From a virus: a stretch of 15,767 nt of DNA. The stretch lies in IMG/VR virus record IMGVR_UViG_3300045988_125934. One strand, 5' to 3'. Below are positions 1 through 15,767 of this stretch, one piece after another (positions within the stretch are counted from its first letter, which is position 1; each line of letters starts with the position of its first letter). The notes under the pieces are model-generated. The model ran no database searches. It had not been told where the DNA came from and saw only the letters and a list, made by a program, of their open reading frames with translations. The position numbers and the translations under genes were made by a program.

Positions 1-177
1 TTAAAAAAGTATAGTCAAATACCCCAACGATTTTACATGTCAAAATTAACACCATAAAACTAACCTCCATTTCCTTACACAAATAATACTCCCATAAAAC
101 AATACAAAATCAAGAACAAAAATTAACACCAAAATGAACACCGTTCACCTGGCCCACCAAGCACCACCACTCTCTAT

Positions 178-284
178 CACAACACAAACCACCACACCAA
201 AACTCACCCCACCTCAACACACCAAAACACATACCACGCAATCACACACCAACAAACACAGCACAAAACAAACCACACCCAAAC
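178..284. repeat. C+A-only tract on the + strand, with about 3 G in about 130 nt. It contains degenerate iterons CAC(A)CC(A)AAAC at about 178, 193, 218, 245 and 274. The mirrored copy at 15484-15590 is G+T-only on the + strand.
   Basis: Counted bases. G occurs only in acgca (about 238) and cagca (about 261) between 162 and 290. Repeats cacaccaaaac at 193-203 and 218-228, cacaccaacaaac at 245-257, cacacccaaac at 274-284. Confidence 0.8.
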
Positions 285-339
285 TTTCCAATTATTCATA
301 ACGAAAATACCTCCATAAAAACAAGCAATAAATAAAGCA

Positions 340-807: not shown

Positions 808-990
808 ATGAAAGAGTGTAGAATTGACTACACAATTTAGGGTCACTATTGCGATTCATATTTATCTGTAGAAATTAAAACATCCAATAACGTGAAAATA
901 CCAGAGGAAGCATTTAATAAAGCTATAATGACCGCAATGAACTACTTACTCGAAAACCTAGAAACAATCGACCAGGAAGAGCCCGCATAG
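808..990 (+). pseudogene. Sixty-codon reading frame split by a single in-frame TAG at 838-840. This gives a 10-codon ORF (MKECRIDYTI), then 49 more open codons in the same frame that end 10 nt before the terminator.
   Basis: AGGAGG lies 5 nt upstream of the ATG at 808. The frame 841-990 has no stops and no independent RBS or start. Confidence 0.35.
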
Positions 991-10328: not shown

Positions 10329-11132
10329 TTACGCGTTATCGTTCAACCAACGCTGCCATGCGCTCGCTGTGTTCTGCCCAAGAATGCCATCAACGTCAAC
10401 GCCTAGAAACTTTTGCATTGCCTTGACGGTTTTAATTCCCATGAAGCCGTCATCTTTTACACCAAATAATCGCTGCATTGCTCCTACTAAGTTAGAACCG
10501 TTACCACCGTTGTAATTGATCGCGCGCGAATCAATGCGCGGATAGTAGCGCTTTTGTTTAGGGTCTTGATTGGACATTACCCCGTCTACAGGAGTACCAA
10601 AATAACGTTGTGCCTTTTTGTTGGTGTTTACTCCAATCCAGCCGTCAATGGCCAGATCATCGGAACCACCCGAAACAGTAGCAGAAGTTGACGAGCCATT
10701 ATTAGCAATTTCGCTAAACGGAAAATTGACGCCTGGGCAATCAGTAGCGCATACATCTTTGTGACGTTGAACCGTGCTAATTCCGTATTTGCTCTTGAGA
10801 TATGAAACGAGTTCAGCGCCTGCGTTTTTCTGCGTATCGCCCATAGTCTCGCTCATAAAATCGCCCTCGAAACATACCCCCAGCGAATCGGAGTTAGACC
10901 CCGACGCATGCGCGCCCACTTTATTTTCGGGGCGCAAGCGGTAAATTTTTCCGTCCTTACGAACTAGGAAATGATATCCAGCGCCAGACCAGCCATTATT
11001 AAGGTGCCATTGATGAATCTGTTCGGCTGTGCATGACTTAGCCGCCGCATGATGCAAGATTATGCGAGTAGTGCGAGATCGGTTAGACATCGCCTTAAAA
11101 GACAAATTGGTTTCTATAATGTTTACTTTCAT
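10329..11132 (-). CDS. Endolysin, 267 aa. The N-terminal domain is an N-acetylmuramoyl-L-alanine amidase (Amidase_2/PGRP). The C-terminus has two PG_binding_1-like repeats.
   Basis: HHAA...GYHFLV...GAHA...CPG amidase_2 signature. DGWIGVNT..AQRYFG and DGILGQNTASAWQRWL PG-binding repeats. Its TAATG overlaps the holin gene. Confidence 0.85.
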   Translation of the reverse strand: MKVNIIETNLSFKAMSNRSRTTRIILHHAAAKSCTAEQIHQWHLNNGWSGAGYHFLVRKDGKIYRLRPENKVGAHASGSNSDSLGVCFEGDFMSETMGDTQKNAGAELVSYLKSKYGISTVQRHKDVCATDCPGVNFPFSEIANNGSSTSATVSGGSDDLAIDGWIGVNTNKKAQRYFGTPVDGVMSNQDPKQKRYYPRIDSRAINYNGGNGSNLVGAMQRLFGVKDDGFMGIKTVKAMQKFLGVDVDGILGQNTASAWQRWLNDNA

Positions 11133-11491
11133 TATTCTTCCTTATTATCGGTAGTATTCTCACCAAAAAGCGATAAAAATTTGCTTGTCTTTAATTCAGG
11201 ATTAATTTCACCTAAGTTTTCCAAAATGCTTACTATTTCGGTGCACGAGATATAAACGGCTACAGCCATATATACCGCCCCGAAAACATCAGGCAAGCCC
11301 AAAATAGGCATTGACCACTCGCAGAGCCAGCCCAACAATAGCGCAAGAATAAAACTTAGCTTGTGCATAAGCCCCTCACGCATTTTCGTGCTTGATAGCT
11401 CGCTTTCGATAACTGCTTTTACAATTCCTGTCACAAAATCAAGAATTATAAAAAGCATCACAACTAAGGCCGCATATAATTCAACTTGCAT
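11132..11491 (-). CDS. Holin, 119 aa, with two or three TM segments and a charged C-terminal tail.
   Basis: Hydrophobic segments LYAALVVMLFIILDFVTGIV, LSFILALLLGWL and VFGAVYMAVAVYI with a polar, acidic C-terminus. It is directly upstream of the endolysin gene and has a GGGGG RBS. Confidence 0.8.
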   Translation of the reverse strand: MQVELYAALVVMLFIILDFVTGIVKAVIESELSSTKMREGLMHKLSFILALLLGWLCEWSMPILGLPDVFGAVYMAVAVYISCTEIVSILENLGEINPELKTSKFLSLFGENTTDNKEE

Positions 11492-11493
11492 AT

Positions 11494-13200
11494 TTACCCC
11501 CTTATAGTAAACGGTCTTTCCTCAAGTATAACCCCGCCCTTAACTAGCTTAGGCACCAATTTATAACATTCTTTTGATAAGTATTTTTTATCGAAGCTAT
11601 TCATATCATGAATAAGTTTAATGTCATTAGTAAAACCTATCTTAAAATCATCAAAGTTCATTACATCTTTTAACCCTTGCGGCATACCTGCGCAGGTGTA
11701 ACTATAATCACCATTATCAAGCTGCACTGCATACGTTTTAGGCCTGATAAAACGGCACTTCTTGAAACGGTATTCGCAATCAAAATATCCCAATTTCTTT
11801 GGGTCTGTTTCTAACCAATCGGGCACATCGCCAAAAGCTTTTATGCTGTCGGTATCGCTGTATATATAATTATCGCCAAACTTTACGGCGGTTCTTATTA
11901 AATAGTCGCGCGCGTAAGCGGTAACAAACGATGCAATAGGGATATATACAGGGTCGCGGTCATCACCGTCTACCAGCTTGTAATGAACCGCATCATCTTC
12001 TAAAACGGGTATTTTCTTGCTTCCCTGTATCTTTTGCCCGAACTTACCATACAGCGAATTATTGCACAATTTCGCTTGAAACCGTTCCCCAGGATTGGTT
12101 GCGTGCGTCTTATTGTAGTTATTTATATCTATATAATCATCAAATAGCCCGTATTGACTACTGAACTTATAAGCGCCCAAAAAGTCGATTATATTCAGGT
12201 CATACATATCACGCATAAGTTCCAAATCTACACTAGTAAACCATCCTATCAAGGGCTCCGTAATGTTTCTCTGATACTCTCTAGGATTGAACTTAGGATT
12301 GTCTTTAATCTGTATACAGGGCAAACAACCAGGCTTTAATTTTGCGGTGTATTCAATACAGGCAACAAAAAGCCCGCCCAATTCTTTTTCGTTCATAACA
12401 AATTCAGGCAACCCATAGGGATATGACTTATAGCGCATCTGGTAGGGATACATGCTATTTACATCTAGCGATACACCGTCTTTAATATAAGTCTTGTTTT
12501 GATGTATCGGATTAACGTAGACGTATCCGCCCCTATAAGACTTGCGTATATCGTGGTCGGCTCTTTTTGGTAACATCGGAAACAATTTATTGAACTTCTT
12601 TCGTTCGATTAAATCTTTATAGACCGCTAAACAATCCGCCGACGTGGTGAGTTTCGTTCCCATTTTAAGACGTTGTTCTAAAACTTGCGCTAATATACAA
12701 ACATCACGCCGCAAGTAGTCCAATTCTTGCACGGTCAATTCATGCCCAGATGGTCGGTAAAGACTATAGTCTATTTCGCCTTTTGACATATTAAGATGAT
12801 AGGTATTGGCTGCTTCTGCAAGGGACATAGTTACTTTTTTAAGGCTGTCGGCAAAAACTATTTCCTTATCCATCGCGCGAAACTTAATTGAATAGAACCG
12901 TCCCATATCATCAATGAGCGTGCTTAGTTGCATATTGTCATTTATCTGATCAACGTGCTTAAAATCGTGCCTTAGCAGATAGTCGATTATAAATTTTCCA
13001 TCAAATGCCAAATTATGAAACCATATGCGGGCCTTATTAAAATTTAGAATTGTGTCTATAAAACTTTCGATTGATACCCCGTAAATAAAACTATTGTTAT
13101 CTCCTACTAGGCACAAGCCCCAAGCCCATACAGGGTTTTTCGCAACTCCCTCTTCGGTTGTGTTGGTTTCAAAGTCGGCTGCGTACTCTGCATAATCCAT
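11494..13200 (-). CDS. Protein-primed family-B DNA polymerase, phi29 gp2-like, 568 aa.
   Basis: Motifs Exo I YAADFETNT, Exo II NLAFDGKFI, Exo III YLRRDVCILA, Pol A DVNSMYP, Pol B KLCNNSLYGKFGQ, Pol C YSDTDS and KxY RPKTYAVQ. Size matches phi29 DNAP (575 aa). Confidence 0.95.
   Translation of the reverse strand: MDYAEYAADFETNTTEEGVAKNPVWAWGLCLVGDNNSFIYGVSIESFIDTILNFNKARIWFHNLAFDGKFIIDYLLRHDFKHVDQINDNMQLSTLIDDMGRFYSIKFRAMDKEIVFADSLKKVTMSLAEAANTYHLNMSKGEIDYSLYRPSGHELTVQELDYLRRDVCILAQVLEQRLKMGTKLTTSADCLAVYKDLIERKKFNKLFPMLPKRADHDIRKSYRGGYVYVNPIHQNKTYIKDGVSLDVNSMYPYQMRYKSYPYGLPEFVMNEKELGGLFVACIEYTAKLKPGCLPCIQIKDNPKFNPREYQRNITEPLIGWFTSVDLELMRDMYDLNIIDFLGAYKFSSQYGLFDDYIDINNYNKTHATNPGERFQAKLCNNSLYGKFGQKIQGSKKIPVLEDDAVHYKLVDGDDRDPVYIPIASFVTAYARDYLIRTAVKFGDNYIYSDTDSIKAFGDVPDWLETDPKKLGYFDCEYRFKKCRFIRPKTYAVQLDNGDYSYTCAGMPQGLKDVMNFDDFKIGFTNDIKLIHDMNSFDKKYLSKECYKLVPKLVKGGVILEERPFTIRG
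11560..11568 (-). promoter_or_regulatory. Candidate extended -10 promoter (TGtTATAAA) inside the 3' end of the polymerase gene, about 70 nt upstream of the holin ATG.
   Basis: Reverse complement of 11560-11568 is tgttataaa. No convincing -35 was found. Confidence 0.2.
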
Positions 13201-13204
13201 GATG

Positions 13205-14059
13205 CTATATATTCTTGACGATCTTCAGCATAGACCATACAACGTCATAATTATCGCCTTTGGTTTCCTCGGCAACGCTAGAATGCCCCTTGTCATAGTC
13301 TTGCTGATAGCGATAAACCGCCGTCAATGCATCAAAATCGGTATAGTGATAAAGGTAATATATTTGGTCATCATTTAAGTTATTTAATATGTTGGCTAAT
13401 TCCTCGGTTAAATAGCCTTCATCGCTTAAACGATTAGTAACTGATTCTATATAACCCCTGTTCTGTTTCGTTAAGGCTTCATCTGTTTTAGGAGCATTTT
13501 TAACAGAACGGTTGTAAGCTTTAATAGCATTTTCTAACTGCTCTAATGACTTAAAAGGGGTATTACGCGGTTCTACTTGTGCCACTAGATTTTCTGCACC
13601 GCCGCGCCCAAAATCTTCTCGGCTAATCTTTTCTGGTAAATTCTTAGTGATCGATTCAATGGCTGCTACTACGTCATCGGGCTTGTTTAGTTCCACATTT
13701 TCCTTAATTTTTTCAAGCCTTGCACGGCGTCCTGCCCTGATTATATTTCTCTCTGCTTCTACAATGCGGTATTCAAAAACTTTTTCATAAGGTAGAGCGA
13801 TATTACTGTTACGTTGCAATACGTAATTAAGCGACTTACCCTGTGTCTCAATTCGATTTTCACGAGAATTAAATTCTCGCAATTGTCGTGCATAGGCGTT
13901 CTGTTCACGAACACTCATACTCTGCACTTCTTCCCAACTTTTAACAGGCACCGTCATTTGATTTATTTGAGCGTTCGTGATTCCTTTTTTACGTAGGCGG
14001 TATAGCTTGTTACGCGCGTTTTTCTGCAATCGTGATAATTCTTTTTTGGTAATAGCCAT
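13205..14059 (-). CDS. Putative terminal protein (replication primer), about 284 aa. The start is probably the ATG at 14059 (MAITKKELSRLQKN...).
   Basis: Immediately upstream of and co-directional with the protein-primed polymerase, as TP genes are in phi29-like phages. Lys/Arg/Glu-rich. The ORF-track N-terminal 20 codons run through a GC-rich hairpin and have no RBS. Confidence 0.6.
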   Translation of the reverse strand: MAITKKELSRLQKNARNKLYRLRKKGITNAQINQMTVPVKSWEEVQSMSVREQNAYARQLREFNSRENRIETQGKSLNYVLQRNSNIALPYEKVFEYRIVEAERNIIRAGRRARLEKIKENVELNKPDDVVAAIESITKNLPEKISREDFGRGGAENLVAQVEPRNTPFKSLEQLENAIKAYNRSVKNAPKTDEALTKQNRGYIESVTNRLSDEGYLTEELANILNNLNDDQIYYLYHYTDFDALTAVYRYQQDYDKGHSSVAEETKGDNYDVVWSMLKIVKNI

Positions 14060-14085
14060 ACCGCACCGCCTAAACTGATAAATTA

Positions 14086-14114
14086 AGCCCCTCCCCAGTT
14101 GAGGGGTAGGGGCT
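14086..14114 (-). terminator. GC-rich hairpin (AGCCCCTACCCC / GGGAGGGGCT, about 10 bp with a 1-nt bulge) followed by a U-rich stretch, between the SSB-like gene and the TP gene. It may be a partial terminator or attenuator.
   Basis: Inverted repeat 14086-14096 / 14101-14114. On the minus strand it is followed by TAATTTATCAGTTT. Confidence 0.4.
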
Positions 14115-14141
14115 ACCAATAACTAGAATTTATAAAACGTA

Positions 14142-14588
14142 TTACATATCCAAATAGCGATAAGTTCGACCGTTGCGCGTTGAACGTGTTTTGGTCACTA
14201 CCTTAATTGGATGTTCCCATGTCTTAGGCATTCCATAAGAGTTAATAAGTGCCTTTACTGATTCGTATACACCCAATGATGCGGAAAAATAGCACTCTCC
14301 CTCTTGATCGATAAGGATAACGGCGGGATTGTCTGTCTTTTCGCCCTCTTCGTCACCACCGATAAAAGAAGAAGTGGTGAATGCGATGTCTACAATGTCA
14401 ATATAAGTTCCGTCCATATCAGACAGGGGCGCGGCGGTATTCTGCGCCTTGAATAAACGGCGCTTATCCTCATCGGTTTCAACGTCGAAAGAGGTCACAA
14501 TGCCGTAAGCCTTTACGCCTGTTCGGATTGATTCATCAAACGAAAGAGTTTCATTAGTTTCACGAATGAGTGCGAGTGATTCAGCCAT
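14142..14588 (-). CDS. p5-like single-stranded DNA-binding protein, 148 aa, acidic.
   Basis: Resemblance to phi29 p5 as recalled from memory: TSFDVETDEDKRRLFKAQNT...DGTYIDI against ATFDTETLEGQIKIFNAQTG...DGTIIEA, and IDQEGECYFSAS against FAADGSLYSAIS. RBS AAAGGAGAA. It lies two genes upstream of TP, as p5 does. Confidence 0.5.
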   Translation of the reverse strand: MAESLALIRETNETLSFDESIRTGVKAYGIVTSFDVETDEDKRRLFKAQNTAAPLSDMDGTYIDIVDIAFTTSSFIGGDEEGEKTDNPAVILIDQEGECYFSASLGVYESVKALINSYGMPKTWEHPIKVVTKTRSTRNGRTYRYLDM

Positions 14589-14590
14589 TG

Positions 14591-14821
14591 TTAGTTCTCC
14601 TTTACGGTAGCATGTTTAATAAATTCATCTTCGGGCATTTCAAAAACTTTTTCAGTCTTAATAATGCCCTTGAGCGTTGCGAAACTGTTTCCCGTTTCAG
14701 CACGTACCATTTTCAACAATCGCATGTCTGAAATAGGCTTACCCGTGTAAGTATATACACCCAAATCTTTTTCACCATCGGTGATAGTTGCTTTTACTTC
14801 TACAAACTTTTTGCGAATCAT
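14591..14821 (-). CDS. p6-like small double-stranded DNA-binding (histone-like) protein, 76 aa.
   Basis: VEVKATITDGEK...EKVFEMPEDEFIKHA against phi29 p6 VNVAKMVMVDGEV...EEVLYAMSLEDFMKLG (from memory). GGGGGTG RBS. Its position upstream of the p5-like gene matches the phi29 order 6-5-(4)-3-2. Confidence 0.4.
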   Translation of the reverse strand: MIRKKFVEVKATITDGEKDLGVYTYTGKPISDMRLLKMVRAETGNSFATLKGIIKTEKVFEMPEDEFIKHATVKEN

Positions 14822-14823
14822 AT

Positions 14824-15081
14824 TTATTCACCCCCTTGCCCTGTGTCTTTATTCATAAAGCGCCTAACCGCTTTACAACACTCTTTATATATACTGTCGG
14901 TATCGTAAGCTATAATGCGTTGTTTGCTCTCAACTCTGCGACCTAGTTTATCTCTGTTTCTCATAACCAGTATAAAGCGAGTTTCATAATAGGTATAATC
15001 AAATGCAGTTATGATTTTGATAAATTCGAGTGATGGAAAAGTAAGCTTAAGTGCTTTGTTTACTTCGTTTGTATCTACCAT
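14824..15081 (-). CDS. Early protein of about 85 aa, function unknown. The start is probably the ATG at 15081, which overlaps the stop of the upstream micro-ORF, rather than the ORF-track TTG at 15090.
   Basis: There is no RBS of its own. The ATGGTAG overlap with the upstream ORF stop suggests translational coupling. Confidence 0.5.
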   Translation of the reverse strand: MVDTNEVNKALKLTFPSLEFIKIITAFDYTYYETRFILVMRNRDKLGRRVESKQRIIAYDTDSIYKECCKAVRRFMNKDTGQGGE

Positions 15082-15158
15082 ATAAACCAACTCGAAATAG
15101 GTATTGAAAAGAATAATAGAAGCGTTAGTGTTATTAGTGCTTTATCTAAGACACTCAT
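15075..15158 (-). CDS. Micro-ORF of 27 aa predicted to be a single-pass membrane peptide (MSVLDKALITLTLLLFFSIPISSWFIW).
   Basis: GAGGTG lies 7 nt upstream of the ATG. Its stop overlaps the ATG of the 85-aa gene. It is absent from the ORF track only because of the length cutoff. Confidence 0.35.
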   Translation of the reverse strand: MSVLDKALITLTLLLFFSIPISSWFIW

Positions 15159-15179: not shown

Positions 15180-15368
15180 TTACAAAGACCAATTAGCACT
15201 CAAAGCTTCAAAACCATAGTACGGGCATGCACCACCTCTAAAATACACCCATAAACAACGTTTACCTTTATAATACCCAGAACTAACTTTTACTGAATAA
15301 AATTTACCATGCCTCAAACCCATAGAACCATCTTCACCAATAAACATAGCGTCAATTACCTTAGTCAT
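15180..15368 (-). CDS. First right-end early protein, 62 aa, basic and Gly/Tyr-rich, function unknown.
   Basis: The ATG at 15368 is preceded by the conserved leader and RBS (aaaggggaaaag) that are shared with the left-end first gene. Confidence 0.55.
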   Translation of the reverse strand: MTKVIDAMFIGEDGSMGLRHGKFYSVKVSSGYYKGKRCLWVYFRGGACPYYGFEALSANWSL

Positions 15369-15430: not shown

Positions 15431-15468
15431 TCAATTTTATTACTTGTTTTTATGGAGGTATTTTCGTT

Positions 15469-15564
15469 ATGAATAATTGGAAAGTTTGGGTGTGGTTTGT
15501 TTTGTGCTGTGTTTGTTGGTGTGTGATTGCGTGGTATGTGTTTTGGTGTGTTGAGGTGGGGTGA
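15469..15564 (+). CDS. ITR-embedded 31-codon ORF (MNNWKVWVWFVLCCVCWCVIAWYVFWCVEVG) reading outward. An identical copy lies on the minus strand at 204-299. It may be a compositional artefact of the G+T-only strand.
   Basis: ATG at 15469 is preceded by GGAGGT with a 9-nt spacer. The frame stays open through the GT-rich tract and ends at TGA 15562-15564. Confidence 0.2.
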   Translation: MNNWKVWVWFVLCCVCWCVIAWYVFWCVEVG

Positions 15565-15767
15565 GTTTTGGTGTGGTGGTTTGTGTTGTGATAGAGAGTG
15601 GTGGTGCTTGGTGGGCCAGGTGAACGGTGTTCATTTTGGTGTTAATTTTTGTTCTTGATTTTGTATTGTTTTATGGGAGTATTATTTGTGTAAGGAAATG
15701 GAGGTTAGTTTTATGGTGTTAATTTTGACATGTAAAATCGTTGGGGTATTTGACTATACTTTTTTAA

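Follow-up and report, generated by a model that had tools for sequence, protein, structure and literature searches.

The window analysed here, the whole 15,767-nt stretch of IMG/VR record IMGVR_UViG_3300045988_125934, is the complete linear genome of a phi29-like podophage whose ends are 325 identical, inverted bases. These inverted terminal repeats (ITRs; left 1 to 325, right 15443 to 15767, perfect copies of each other) have an extreme strand asymmetry, which an initial annotation of the sequence likened to yeast telomeric DNA. The asymmetry itself is confirmed as real and far beyond chance, but two organising features had been missed: a phased array of direct-repeat units of approximately 13 bp, each made of an A-tract and a C-rich spacer (3 to 290, plus strand), and a conserved small open reading frame (ORF) on the G+T strand, called ORF-A. 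The genome also encodes a homologue of p6, the histone-like double-stranded DNA-binding protein of phi29. We put at roughly 0.5 the probability that the ITR array is a nucleation and assembly platform for this p6-type protein, the skew following from the orientation of the units and ORF-A being embedded among them.

On the plus strand the left ITR is 79% C+A (151 A, 107 C, 53 T and 14 G), and the right ITR is G+T-rich. The initial annotation had singled out a core at 162 to 290 of the plus strand as containing C and A only, apart from about three G's and very few T's; the actual count in these 129 nt is 58 C, 58 A, 11 T and 2 G (90% C+A), and in the somewhat larger interval from 150 to 295 it is 63 C, 63 A, 15 T and 5 G. 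On the plus strand, the left ITR contains all of the three longest stretches without G (76 nt at 162-237, 74 nt at 40-113 and 41 nt at 262-302), while G-free runs elsewhere in the genome are 39 nt or less and the mirror C-free runs sit in the right ITR. When the composition is followed in 100-nt windows, C+A peaks at 94 in the left ITR and has its minimum, 6, in the right one, compared to 32-71 (mean 50, sd 8) in internal windows. The asymmetry is thus confined to the ITR, as had been claimed, and C+A or G+T stretches of this kind elsewhere in the genome, which would speak for low-complexity noise, were looked for and none was found. A count of 116 or more C+A in 129 nt has a binomial probability of 3.7e-22, and genomes simulated with a first-order Markov model reach a maximum of only 84.9 +/- 2.3 (highest 93) versus the 116 of 129 observed. 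Two further statements of the initial annotation also hold: from the geometry of the ITR, the strand that runs 5' to 3' toward each terminus is the G+T strand, and the displaced C+A strand is essentially unable to fold. The minimum free energy (MFE) of 162-290 is 0.0 kcal/mol on both strands (DNA parameters), making these the least structured 130-nt windows of the genome, for which the mean folding energy is -10.6 (sd 4.1).

This composition has a periodic structure. Fourier analysis of AA over positions 1 to 300 gives a best period of 13.0 with a normalised power of 14.7; the corresponding maximum in shuffled sequences is 8.5 +/- 1.8 (P=0.004), and in internal windows of 300 nt the power is only 2.05 +/- 1.46, with a maximum of 7.8. 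The A-tracts of the window start at 3, 17, 42, 56, 81, 96, 106, 118, 131, 186, 199, 224, 254, 265 and further on, with spacings of 12-14, 25-27, 39 and 53 bp. For the starts from nucleotide 3 to 224 the phase modulo 13 stays within 1-5, and the A's are always on the 5'-ending strand. Tandem Repeats Finder (TRF) reports a period of 12 at 105-142 and a period of 25 at 193-247. Because all of the units point in the same direction and contain almost only A and C, one strand becomes C+A and the other G+T; we infer that the skew is a by-product of unit orientation and not a telomere-like signal.

Within the window, recognisable iterons are limited to three weak copies, AAAATTAACACC at 42-53 (plus strand) and those at 119-130 and 131-142 (AAAATGAACACC), together with degenerate units. 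The outermost 160 nt are less skewed (64-78% C+A) and contain conserved non-repeat sequence of an origin type; a terminal motif, AAATACCCCAACG at 17-29 (plus strand), is conserved among relatives and is presumed to be the origin core. At 135-147 there is a palindrome, TGAAC-ACC-GTTCA, which consists of two inverted half-iterons, is the sole G/T-containing island in the tract, and is kept as CTGAACAACGTTCAAC in several relatives. Among the annotated genes there is no Rep-type initiator; the replication set consists of a type-B DNA polymerase (PolB), a putative terminal protein (TP), a protein that binds single-stranded DNA (SSB), and the p6-like protein. Other repeats are present in the region as well: a 30-nt direct repeat with 73% identity (30-59 and 291-320; ATTTTACATGTCAAAATTAACACCATAAAA and ATTATTCATAACGAAAATACCTCCATAAAA), and CCATAAAAC, which occurs three times in the ITR (52-60, 92-100 and 313-322). 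The sequence TGAACCACA has a weak likeness to a DnaA box.

Some relatives of the phage show the array in better-preserved form. Many close relatives of approximately 15-16 kb are present in IMG/VR, ENA and Logan, at least one of them from the human gut; Logan and ENA together contain hundreds of contigs of approximately 15 kb, with 171 protein clusters. Fifteen full IMG/VR relatives, with DNA polymerases (DNAP) that are 90-95% identical, were rebuilt and seven further ends were added, for about 20 relatives overall. (A metagenome pattern scan gave mostly chance matches and 5 true members.) In those relatives whose sequence extends to the terminus, the ITRs are perfect and 280-512 bp long. Alignment divides the ITR into a sequence-conserved inner block, which corresponds to 213-397 of the window, and a non-alignable outer part. 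The outer part is 85-310 bp long, yet it is 66-90% C+A with 3-8% G; since it keeps its base make-up even though it cannot be aligned, composition is being maintained while sequence turns over. In the outer, non-alignable ITRs of 12 relatives the best period is 12.75-13.75 or the harmonic 6.25-6.5 in every case (12/12), and in five further members it is 12.8-13.6. TRF also gives periods of 13 (with as many as 9.8 copies), 26/27, 39, 52 and 64/65. Clean iterons, TTGAACCACAAAA or CAAAATTGAACCA, are found in some relatives, repeated in tandem from 3 to more than 9 times; one end (L091) has at least nine tandem TTGAACCACAAAA units, and in another genome (108249) CAAAATTGAACCA is repeated 9.4 times with a period of 13.

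As judged from the sequences compared, the feature is specific to this phage clade. At 73 other phi29-like contig ends the GC skew averages +0.03, and not one of them has the 13-bp periodicity or 80% or more C+A; given the lack of any trend at these 73 ends, a general 5'-end skew in phi29-like phages was rejected. The same periodicity test found no 13-bp period at the ends of phi29, Cp-1, Voltaire, Av-1 or CH17P1, and there is no extreme tract at the ends of Cp-1, Av-1, Voltaire, CH17P1 or Mendel. A sister contig with 47% DNAP identity (L101) is alone in having a weak C+A-rich version, approximately 100 nt long. In line with the initial annotation, which knew of no such description for phi29-like phages, a literature search gave no account of an array or tract of this kind.

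The ITRs and their borders are also variable in other respects. In IMGVR_UViG_3300045988_110784 (L007/L032) the two ends differ by one additional copy of a 40-bp repeat, so that either ITR homogenisation is not always perfect or the assembly has collapsed one copy; the ITRs of other relatives contain tandem duplications of 52, 64 and 68 bp. The first genes that adjoin the ITR (399-798 and 15180-15368) are mosaic among relatives that are otherwise 90-99% identical: proteins of 74, 54 and 62 aa are each present in some genomes only, while the ITR-proximal promoter and ribosome-binding site (RBS) are conserved. The pattern of mosaic first genes beside a conserved promoter and RBS points to an exchange of cassettes at the border of the ITR.

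As ligand of the array we propose the p6 homologue, a basic 76-aa protein encoded at 14591-14821 (minus strand). Its gene lies just upstream of the SSB gene and two genes upstream of that of the TP, with DNAP coming next, an order that matches the p6-family arrangement. BLASTP aligns the protein to phi29 p6 with 28% identity over 68 residues (E=9e-5), and hhalign gives the same register (E=0.005). An AF2 model (pLDDT 77) has the order beta-beta-alpha (12 residues)-beta-alpha, which is the order described for p6. When this model is used in Foldseek searches, the top matches among viral models (BFVD) are annotated 'Double-strand binding protein' and 'Histone-like protein p6' of phi29-like phages, and among 350,542 PDB chains phi29 p6 (8pw4_A) comes first with E=3.2e-3, the next chain being 25-fold behind at 0.08. 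With tblastn, the 76-aa protein weakly matches ORFs in three other phages that phi29 p6 matches strongly. The protein is 86-96% conserved in 14 of the 15 rebuilt contigs (those that include the region), and a p6-like homologue that is 46% identical (P0122) is found on a contig that lacks the end.

Several properties of p6 are relevant to its proposed role. The fold of p6 has been described as unique (PMC10899789). Its monomers contact and bend DNA through the minor groove, at intervals of 12 bp in phi29 and 11 bp in GA-1, and the protein wraps DNA as a right-handed superhelix (PMC4974454, PMC10899789), nucleating at bendability signals near both ends; the resulting complex stimulates TP-primed initiation and represses the end-proximal early promoter (PMC4974454, PMC10899789, phi29 record). 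What phi29 p6 reads is the shape of the DNA rather than its sequence (PMC4974454).

The second feature within the ITR, ORF-A, is a 31-aa hydrophobic peptide (MNNWKVWVWFVLCCVCWCVIAWYVFWCVEVG) encoded at 204-299 on the minus strand (ATG at 299-297, TGA at 206-204), and is therefore read outward on the G+T strand; the right ITR contains a second copy with the identical peptide (15469-15564, plus strand). DNA that contains only G and T can have no stop codons and can encode only G, V, W, C, L and F. Consequently, an open frame here means nothing by itself, and the argument for a gene depends on other evidence. A Shine-Dalgarno (SD) sequence, GGAGGT, is present at 309-314 (minus strand), 9 nt before the ATG, and is retained as GGAGG in 15 of 18 ends, with the variants GGGGG, GGGAG and GGAAG. 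Of 19 distinct relatives, 17 have an intact ORF-A of 28-33 aa, in which frame, start, SD and approximate stop are all kept, one relative having an in-frame 3-nt insertion; of the other two, L068 has a version of 23 aa, while the end of the contig interrupts ORF-A in L093. The public gene call in L093 independently lists the ORF-A homologue. The NG86 ratio of nonsynonymous to synonymous substitution rates (dN/dS) is 0.20, with dN<dS in 66 of 66 pairs; among distinct substitution events 15 of 43 are synonymous versus 7.5 +/- 2.4 under the null (P=0.003), and of the changes to A or C, which break the G/T-only pattern, 8 of 18 are synonymous. Taken together, these results make it probable that ORF-A is a real gene.

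The ORF-A peptide has a short polar N-terminus and one hydrophobic helix, and its product is proposed to be a membrane peptide. Its hydropathy (GRAVY) is 1.36, and it contains 6 W, 5 C and 8 V, with 22 of 31 codons being G/T-only; it is poor in L, I and A when compared with the other small hydrophobic peptide of the phage. Given this odd W/C/V-rich make-up, the nucleotide composition seems to shape the peptide and not the reverse, which suggests that ORF-A arose from, or is co-constrained with, the repeat array. Searches of phage records with tblastn and family scans found no sequence relatives of ORF-A outside this phage clade. The other small hydrophobic ORF (15075-15158, minus strand; 27 aa, MSVLDKALITLTLLLFFSIPISSWFIW) is located between the first two early genes at the right end, is 48-85% conserved in most relatives, and, unlike ORF-A, has the ordinary L/I/F-rich make-up of a transmembrane (TM) helix. 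Three other reading frames of the ITR were considered and rejected. A plus strand ORF at 134-301 (55 aa, rich in T, P, Q and H) is an artefact of stop-free C+A sequence, with 31 synonymous versus 520 non-synonymous changes. A frame on the C+A strand that shares the third positions of ORF-A ties its synonymous count, but its start is absent in two genomes and it has no SD. Finally, an outward 'ORF-B' behind the SD-like sequence AAGGAAATGGAGG (77-64) was rejected as a gene because its peptide is unconserved and the terminal motif is read in varying frames.

From these observations a mechanism can be proposed. The ITR consists of degenerate head-to-tail units of approximately 13 bp, which would be the decayed form of an iteron, TTGAACCACAAAA, that is intact in relatives; the array keeps its phase from nucleotide 3 of the genome to about nucleotide 265-290. 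A-tracts have narrow minor grooves, and a train of about 20 of them, in phase at 13-bp spacing between the very terminus and the putative early promoters, has the appearance expected of a nucleation and assembly track for a protein of this kind. One p6-type monomer might occupy each 13-bp unit by way of the narrow A-tract groove, giving about 20 monomers per end. With 13 bp per unit, successive sites would be rotated by approximately 86 degrees, so that every fourth unit (52 bp) would return to the same face, and the 25-27-bp higher-order period seen in several genomes could correspond to a p6 dimer repeat. The origin would thereby be wrapped into a superhelical nucleoprotein complex, which would help to open the end for TP-primed initiation, and the complex may also cover the adjoining back-to-back early promoters. 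The inner 96 bp (204-299) would in addition encode the predicted membrane peptide of ORF-A, outward on the G+T strand. The composition, periodicity, phase, conservation pattern, ORF statistics and presence of the p6 homologue are observations; binding of the 76-aa protein to the array in a 13-bp register, and activation of the origin by the complex, are what we infer from them.

A number of points weigh against this proposal. The periodicity of the outer part of the window, taken alone, is marginal (P=0.075), and the ends of phi29 itself show no significant periodicity in the same test. A Pfam scan at E<=1 assigns no family to the 76-aa protein, although the p6 model is assumed to have been included. 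In phi29 the p6 dimers are tail-to-tail and have approximate two-fold symmetry, so asymmetric direct repeats would not obviously be needed. In addition, protein binding alone leaves the constant strand of the A-tracts unexplained, since recognition through the minor groove works on either strand; because the A-tracts never switch strand, descent by tandem duplication must be invoked, possibly together with selection for structure-free single strands. A 13-bp period and its multiples are also expected from unequal crossing-over among 13-mers, with no selection on phase. For ORF-A, the substitution test becomes weaker when divergent sequences are added to give 19 (15 of 54 synonymous versus 9.1 +/- 2.7; P=0.027), and the scan revealed no convincing outward promoter, the sole candidate being a -10-like TATAAT at 351-346. 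A more far-reaching version of the proposal is a 'chromatin cap', in which the array unit matches the p6 register, changes in length by 13-bp units, is homogenised between the ends, and has given birth de novo to a gene for a membrane microprotein on its stop-free G+T strand. As a whole we consider this version doubtful; if true, it would be a bacterial-virus analogue of a telomere plus shelterin, reached by an unrelated route.

Other explanations of the skew have to be weighed against a p6 platform. According to the initial annotation, the ends are telomere-like, in which case the G+T strand with its 3' end at the terminus would act as yeast TG1-3 does, as a binding site for end protection or as a G-rich structure. 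Its description of composition and polarity is correct, and repeat number and length differ between relatives as they do in telomeres. The G+T strand does end 3' at the terminus; this polarity carries no weight as evidence, however, because it arises automatically in any strand-skewed inverted repeat. The resemblance to yeast does not survive closer comparison either: the tract does not reach the terminus but lies 162-290 nt away from it, only about half of it parses as (TG1-3)n (with n>=2, 71 of 146 nt, the longest stretch being 11 nt), and its repeat unit is 13 bp long with A-tracts. There are seven T-runs of at least 3 and only three G-runs of that length, so that no G-quadruplex can form, and as DNA the G+T strand has no predicted structure. 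The genome has PolB and putative TP genes for the replication of its ends, and no reverse transcriptase was seen in it. A telomere-like function is thus very improbable. A mutational bias that results from single-strandedness during strand-displacement replication would account for the mirror symmetry of the skew at the two ends, which is like that of replication-driven skews. According to established chemistry, deamination of C to U and of A to hypoxanthine should enrich a long-exposed strand in G+T. The 5'-ending strand is single-stranded the longest and should become G+T-rich, but the opposite is seen; moreover, the tract has sharp boundaries, is periodic and partly sequence-conserved, and the other phi29-like ends, with their near-zero mean skew, show no trend. 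This explanation is scarcely credible.

The presence of ORF-A raises the question of whether the skew is purely a by-product of coding, given that a hydrophobic peptide uses G/T-rich codons (GTN, TGG, TGT, TTT, GGN). ORF-A spans 87 of the 129 nt of the 162-290 core, and its SD, ATG, conserved stop, dN/dS and synonymous changes to A or C all fit such an origin. The skew extends beyond it, however, to the G-free sequence at 40-113 and 162-203 in the window and to the 85-310 nt of 66-90% C+A outside the ORF in relatives, and there ORF-A cannot account for it; other outer ORFs of the G+T strand are unconserved, with the frame of the terminal motif varying among genomes, and the W/C/V-rich, L/I/A-poor peptide suggests that composition drives the peptide. 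Coding alone is consequently an improbable cause. Selection for structure-free single strands, the displaced C+A strand and its G+T complement, could favour faster coating by SSB, passage of the polymerase, or panhandle annealing. Consistent with this idea are the MFE of 0.0 on both strands, in the least structured windows of the genome, and the fact that the ITR copies stay identical while relatives diverge, which implies some end-to-end homogenisation. Yet neither the 13-bp periodicity nor the locking of phase to the terminus nor the iterons would be expected from it, and no such skew is found in the phi29-like Cp-1 and Voltaire (ITRs of 176-236 bp) or in the 73 other contig ends; it is unlikely as the explanation in itself and may act alongside the p6 platform. 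A different protein might also bind the array, such as the N-terminal DNA-binding domain of the TP, an early protein of 88 aa (14824-15090) or 62 aa (15180-15368), or a host protein. The units in relatives are sequence-specific iterons (TTGAACCACAAAA), while phi29 p6 reads shape, and the palindrome TGAAC-ACC-GTTCA resembles an operator for a dimeric regulator. Against this, none of the candidates has supporting homology, while the p6 homologue is conserved in nearly all of the rebuilt contigs and the spacing in its family, 11-12 bp, is near 13; another ligand is therefore possible but rather unlikely. Chi-like decoys for AddAB/RecBCD on the 3'-ending strand, and a C-rich, G-poor leader for Rho loading if the C+A strand is transcribed inward, have been considered as ideas only.

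Between ORF-A and the first inward gene there are back-to-back -10-like TATAAT boxes, at 351-346 on the minus strand and 364-369 on the plus strand, which are conserved in relatives. A strict sigma-70 and terminator scan of positions 1-1000 found nothing in the ITR, and neither TATAAT box passes it; the promoter assignments are therefore tentative. A module at 64-100, CCTCCATTTCCTTACACAAATAATACTCCCATAAAAC, is conserved in most relatives. Its minus strand contains a promoter-like TTGAYN-17-TAGTAT (with an upstream TG in relatives), followed by the SD-like AAGGAAAGGAGGG and then an ATG, and the module could yield a short outward run-off RNA. An 11-nt inverted repeat (67-77 and 382-392; CCATTTCCTTA and TAAGGAAAGGG) pairs this ITR module with the RBS of the first inward gene, and may be no more than a pair of oppositely oriented SD-like sequences. 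If the C+A strand gave an inward RNA, this RNA would fold only by the pairing of 64-77 with the RBS at 382-394, the inverted repeat dominating the predicted fold (z=-1.9); the strict scan of 1-1000 found no promoter to produce it. A structured RNA from the G+U strand, similar to the packaging RNA (pRNA), was rejected because the fold is weaker than that of shuffled sequences (z=+1.67).

In the rest of the genome, Pfam and PHROG scans find the gp16 packaging ATPase (999-2054), connector, tail knob, phi29-type major capsid protein, holin (11132-11491), amidase, PolB (11494-13200) and phi29-type SSB (14142-14588), all of them on the minus strand. A 304-aa ORF at 13205-14119 adjoins PolB and occupies the position of the TP gene, and is the putative TP; the same scans give no family match for it. 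PolB is at most 38% identical to that of known phages, and in 50,697 phage records megablast of the genome found no close GenBank phage at the DNA level, while blastn of the ITR and tblastn of the ORF-A peptide gave no relevant match. A gap of 200 bp (799-998) separates a convergent left operon from the packaging ATPase gene and contains one terminator-like hairpin (816-833, minus strand). An Rfam search of the whole window at E<=1 returned a chance miRNA match only and no pRNA; if the phage uses a packaging RNA, it is one that Rfam does not recognise, either at 799-998 or elsewhere.

At each end, partial similarity continues past the 325 identical bases to approximately nucleotide 397, and covers a -10-like box together with the RBS and the beginning of the first inward gene. 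The sequence AAAGTA at 6-11 (and 15757-15762), which lies within the terminal sequence TTAAAAAAGTATAG, is the 6-bp terminal repeat of phi29. One relative (L071) begins with TCAAAAAG, 19 nt from the conserved motif ATACCCCAACG, as in the window; from this identical distance, the contig probably reaches, or almost reaches, the true end of the genome. A separate observation concerns a distant phi29-like IMG/VR contig (L121), which at 1-19 begins with ACGTGTGCTCTTCCGATCT joined directly to AGTAGG, the start of another relative (L114). We take ACGTGTGCTCTTCCGATCT to be Illumina TruSeq adapter, which it matches. This suggests that the end of L121 marks a true genome terminus and that adapter sequence persists in the public record.

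The textbook example of a histone-like protein that acts independently of sequence and activates a protein-primed origin is the p6 complex of phi29. Its DNA signal has been elusive because in phi29 there is only a faint bendability pattern. The gut-phage clade described here appears to spell out this signal as an explicit, phase-locked array of approximately 20 units of 13 bp, together with a minimal 76-aa homologue. If binding is confirmed, the array would be a natural, high-contrast substrate for investigating how a p6 filament reads DNA, how its register is set (11, 12 or 13 bp) and how a terminal origin is opened, and it could help in designing stronger origins, both for phi29-type amplification and for orthogonal-replication systems. 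ORF-A would be a candidate for the birth of a gene from a compositionally skewed repeat. More generally, an apparent telomere-like skew can resolve into a repeat architecture and a small gene.

Comparison with known systems places these features in context. Yeast TG1-3/C1-3A telomeres share with the ITR a G+T strand running 5' to 3' toward the end, length variation and a strand-asymmetric composition. However, the phage tract is non-terminal, has a 13-bp unit with A-tracts and T-runs, and has no G-quadruplex potential; no reverse transcriptase that could be a telomerase was seen, and the phage ends would be capped by a covalently linked terminal protein, for which there is a putative gene here. 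Origin iterons of plasmids and phages are similar in having several 13-bp direct repeats of the same orientation by the origin, a copy number that varies among relatives, and one inverted copy that makes a palindrome. They differ in that replication here would be protein-primed from the ends with no Rep-type initiator, and that most units are degenerate, keeping only the A-tract and the C+A composition. The pneumococcal phages of the Cp-1 type also have a long ITR for a phi29-like phage (236 bp), which holds promoters, and the Cp-1 record (NC_001825, L036) annotates an outward -35/-10 pair at 150-177 inside the ITR, a precedent for outward transcription; that ITR, however, is only 54-66% C+A and has no 13-bp periodicity. 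ORF-A, with its 31 aa, single helix and strong SD, is like the small hydrophobic peptides of phages and type I toxins (approximately 30 aa with one TM helix), but it is encoded twice, inside the ITR, has an unusual content of Trp and Cys, and belongs to a phage with a separate holin.

A close parallel is the p6 complex of phi29 and GA-1. In both cases a p6-family gene lies upstream of those for SSB, TP and DNAP, the region is near both ends with an early promoter adjoining, and a periodic DNA signal of A-tracts has a period close to that of the monomers (13 bp here, compared to 11 bp for GA-1 and 12 bp for phi29, a difference of 1-2 bp). The signal of phi29 is a subtle bendability pattern of approximately 20-60 bp with no detectable sequence repeat, whereas here, if the putative binding is correct, it would be an overt tandem array of 250-450 bp that fills a long ITR, has a strictly one-stranded composition, and differs in copy number between close relatives.

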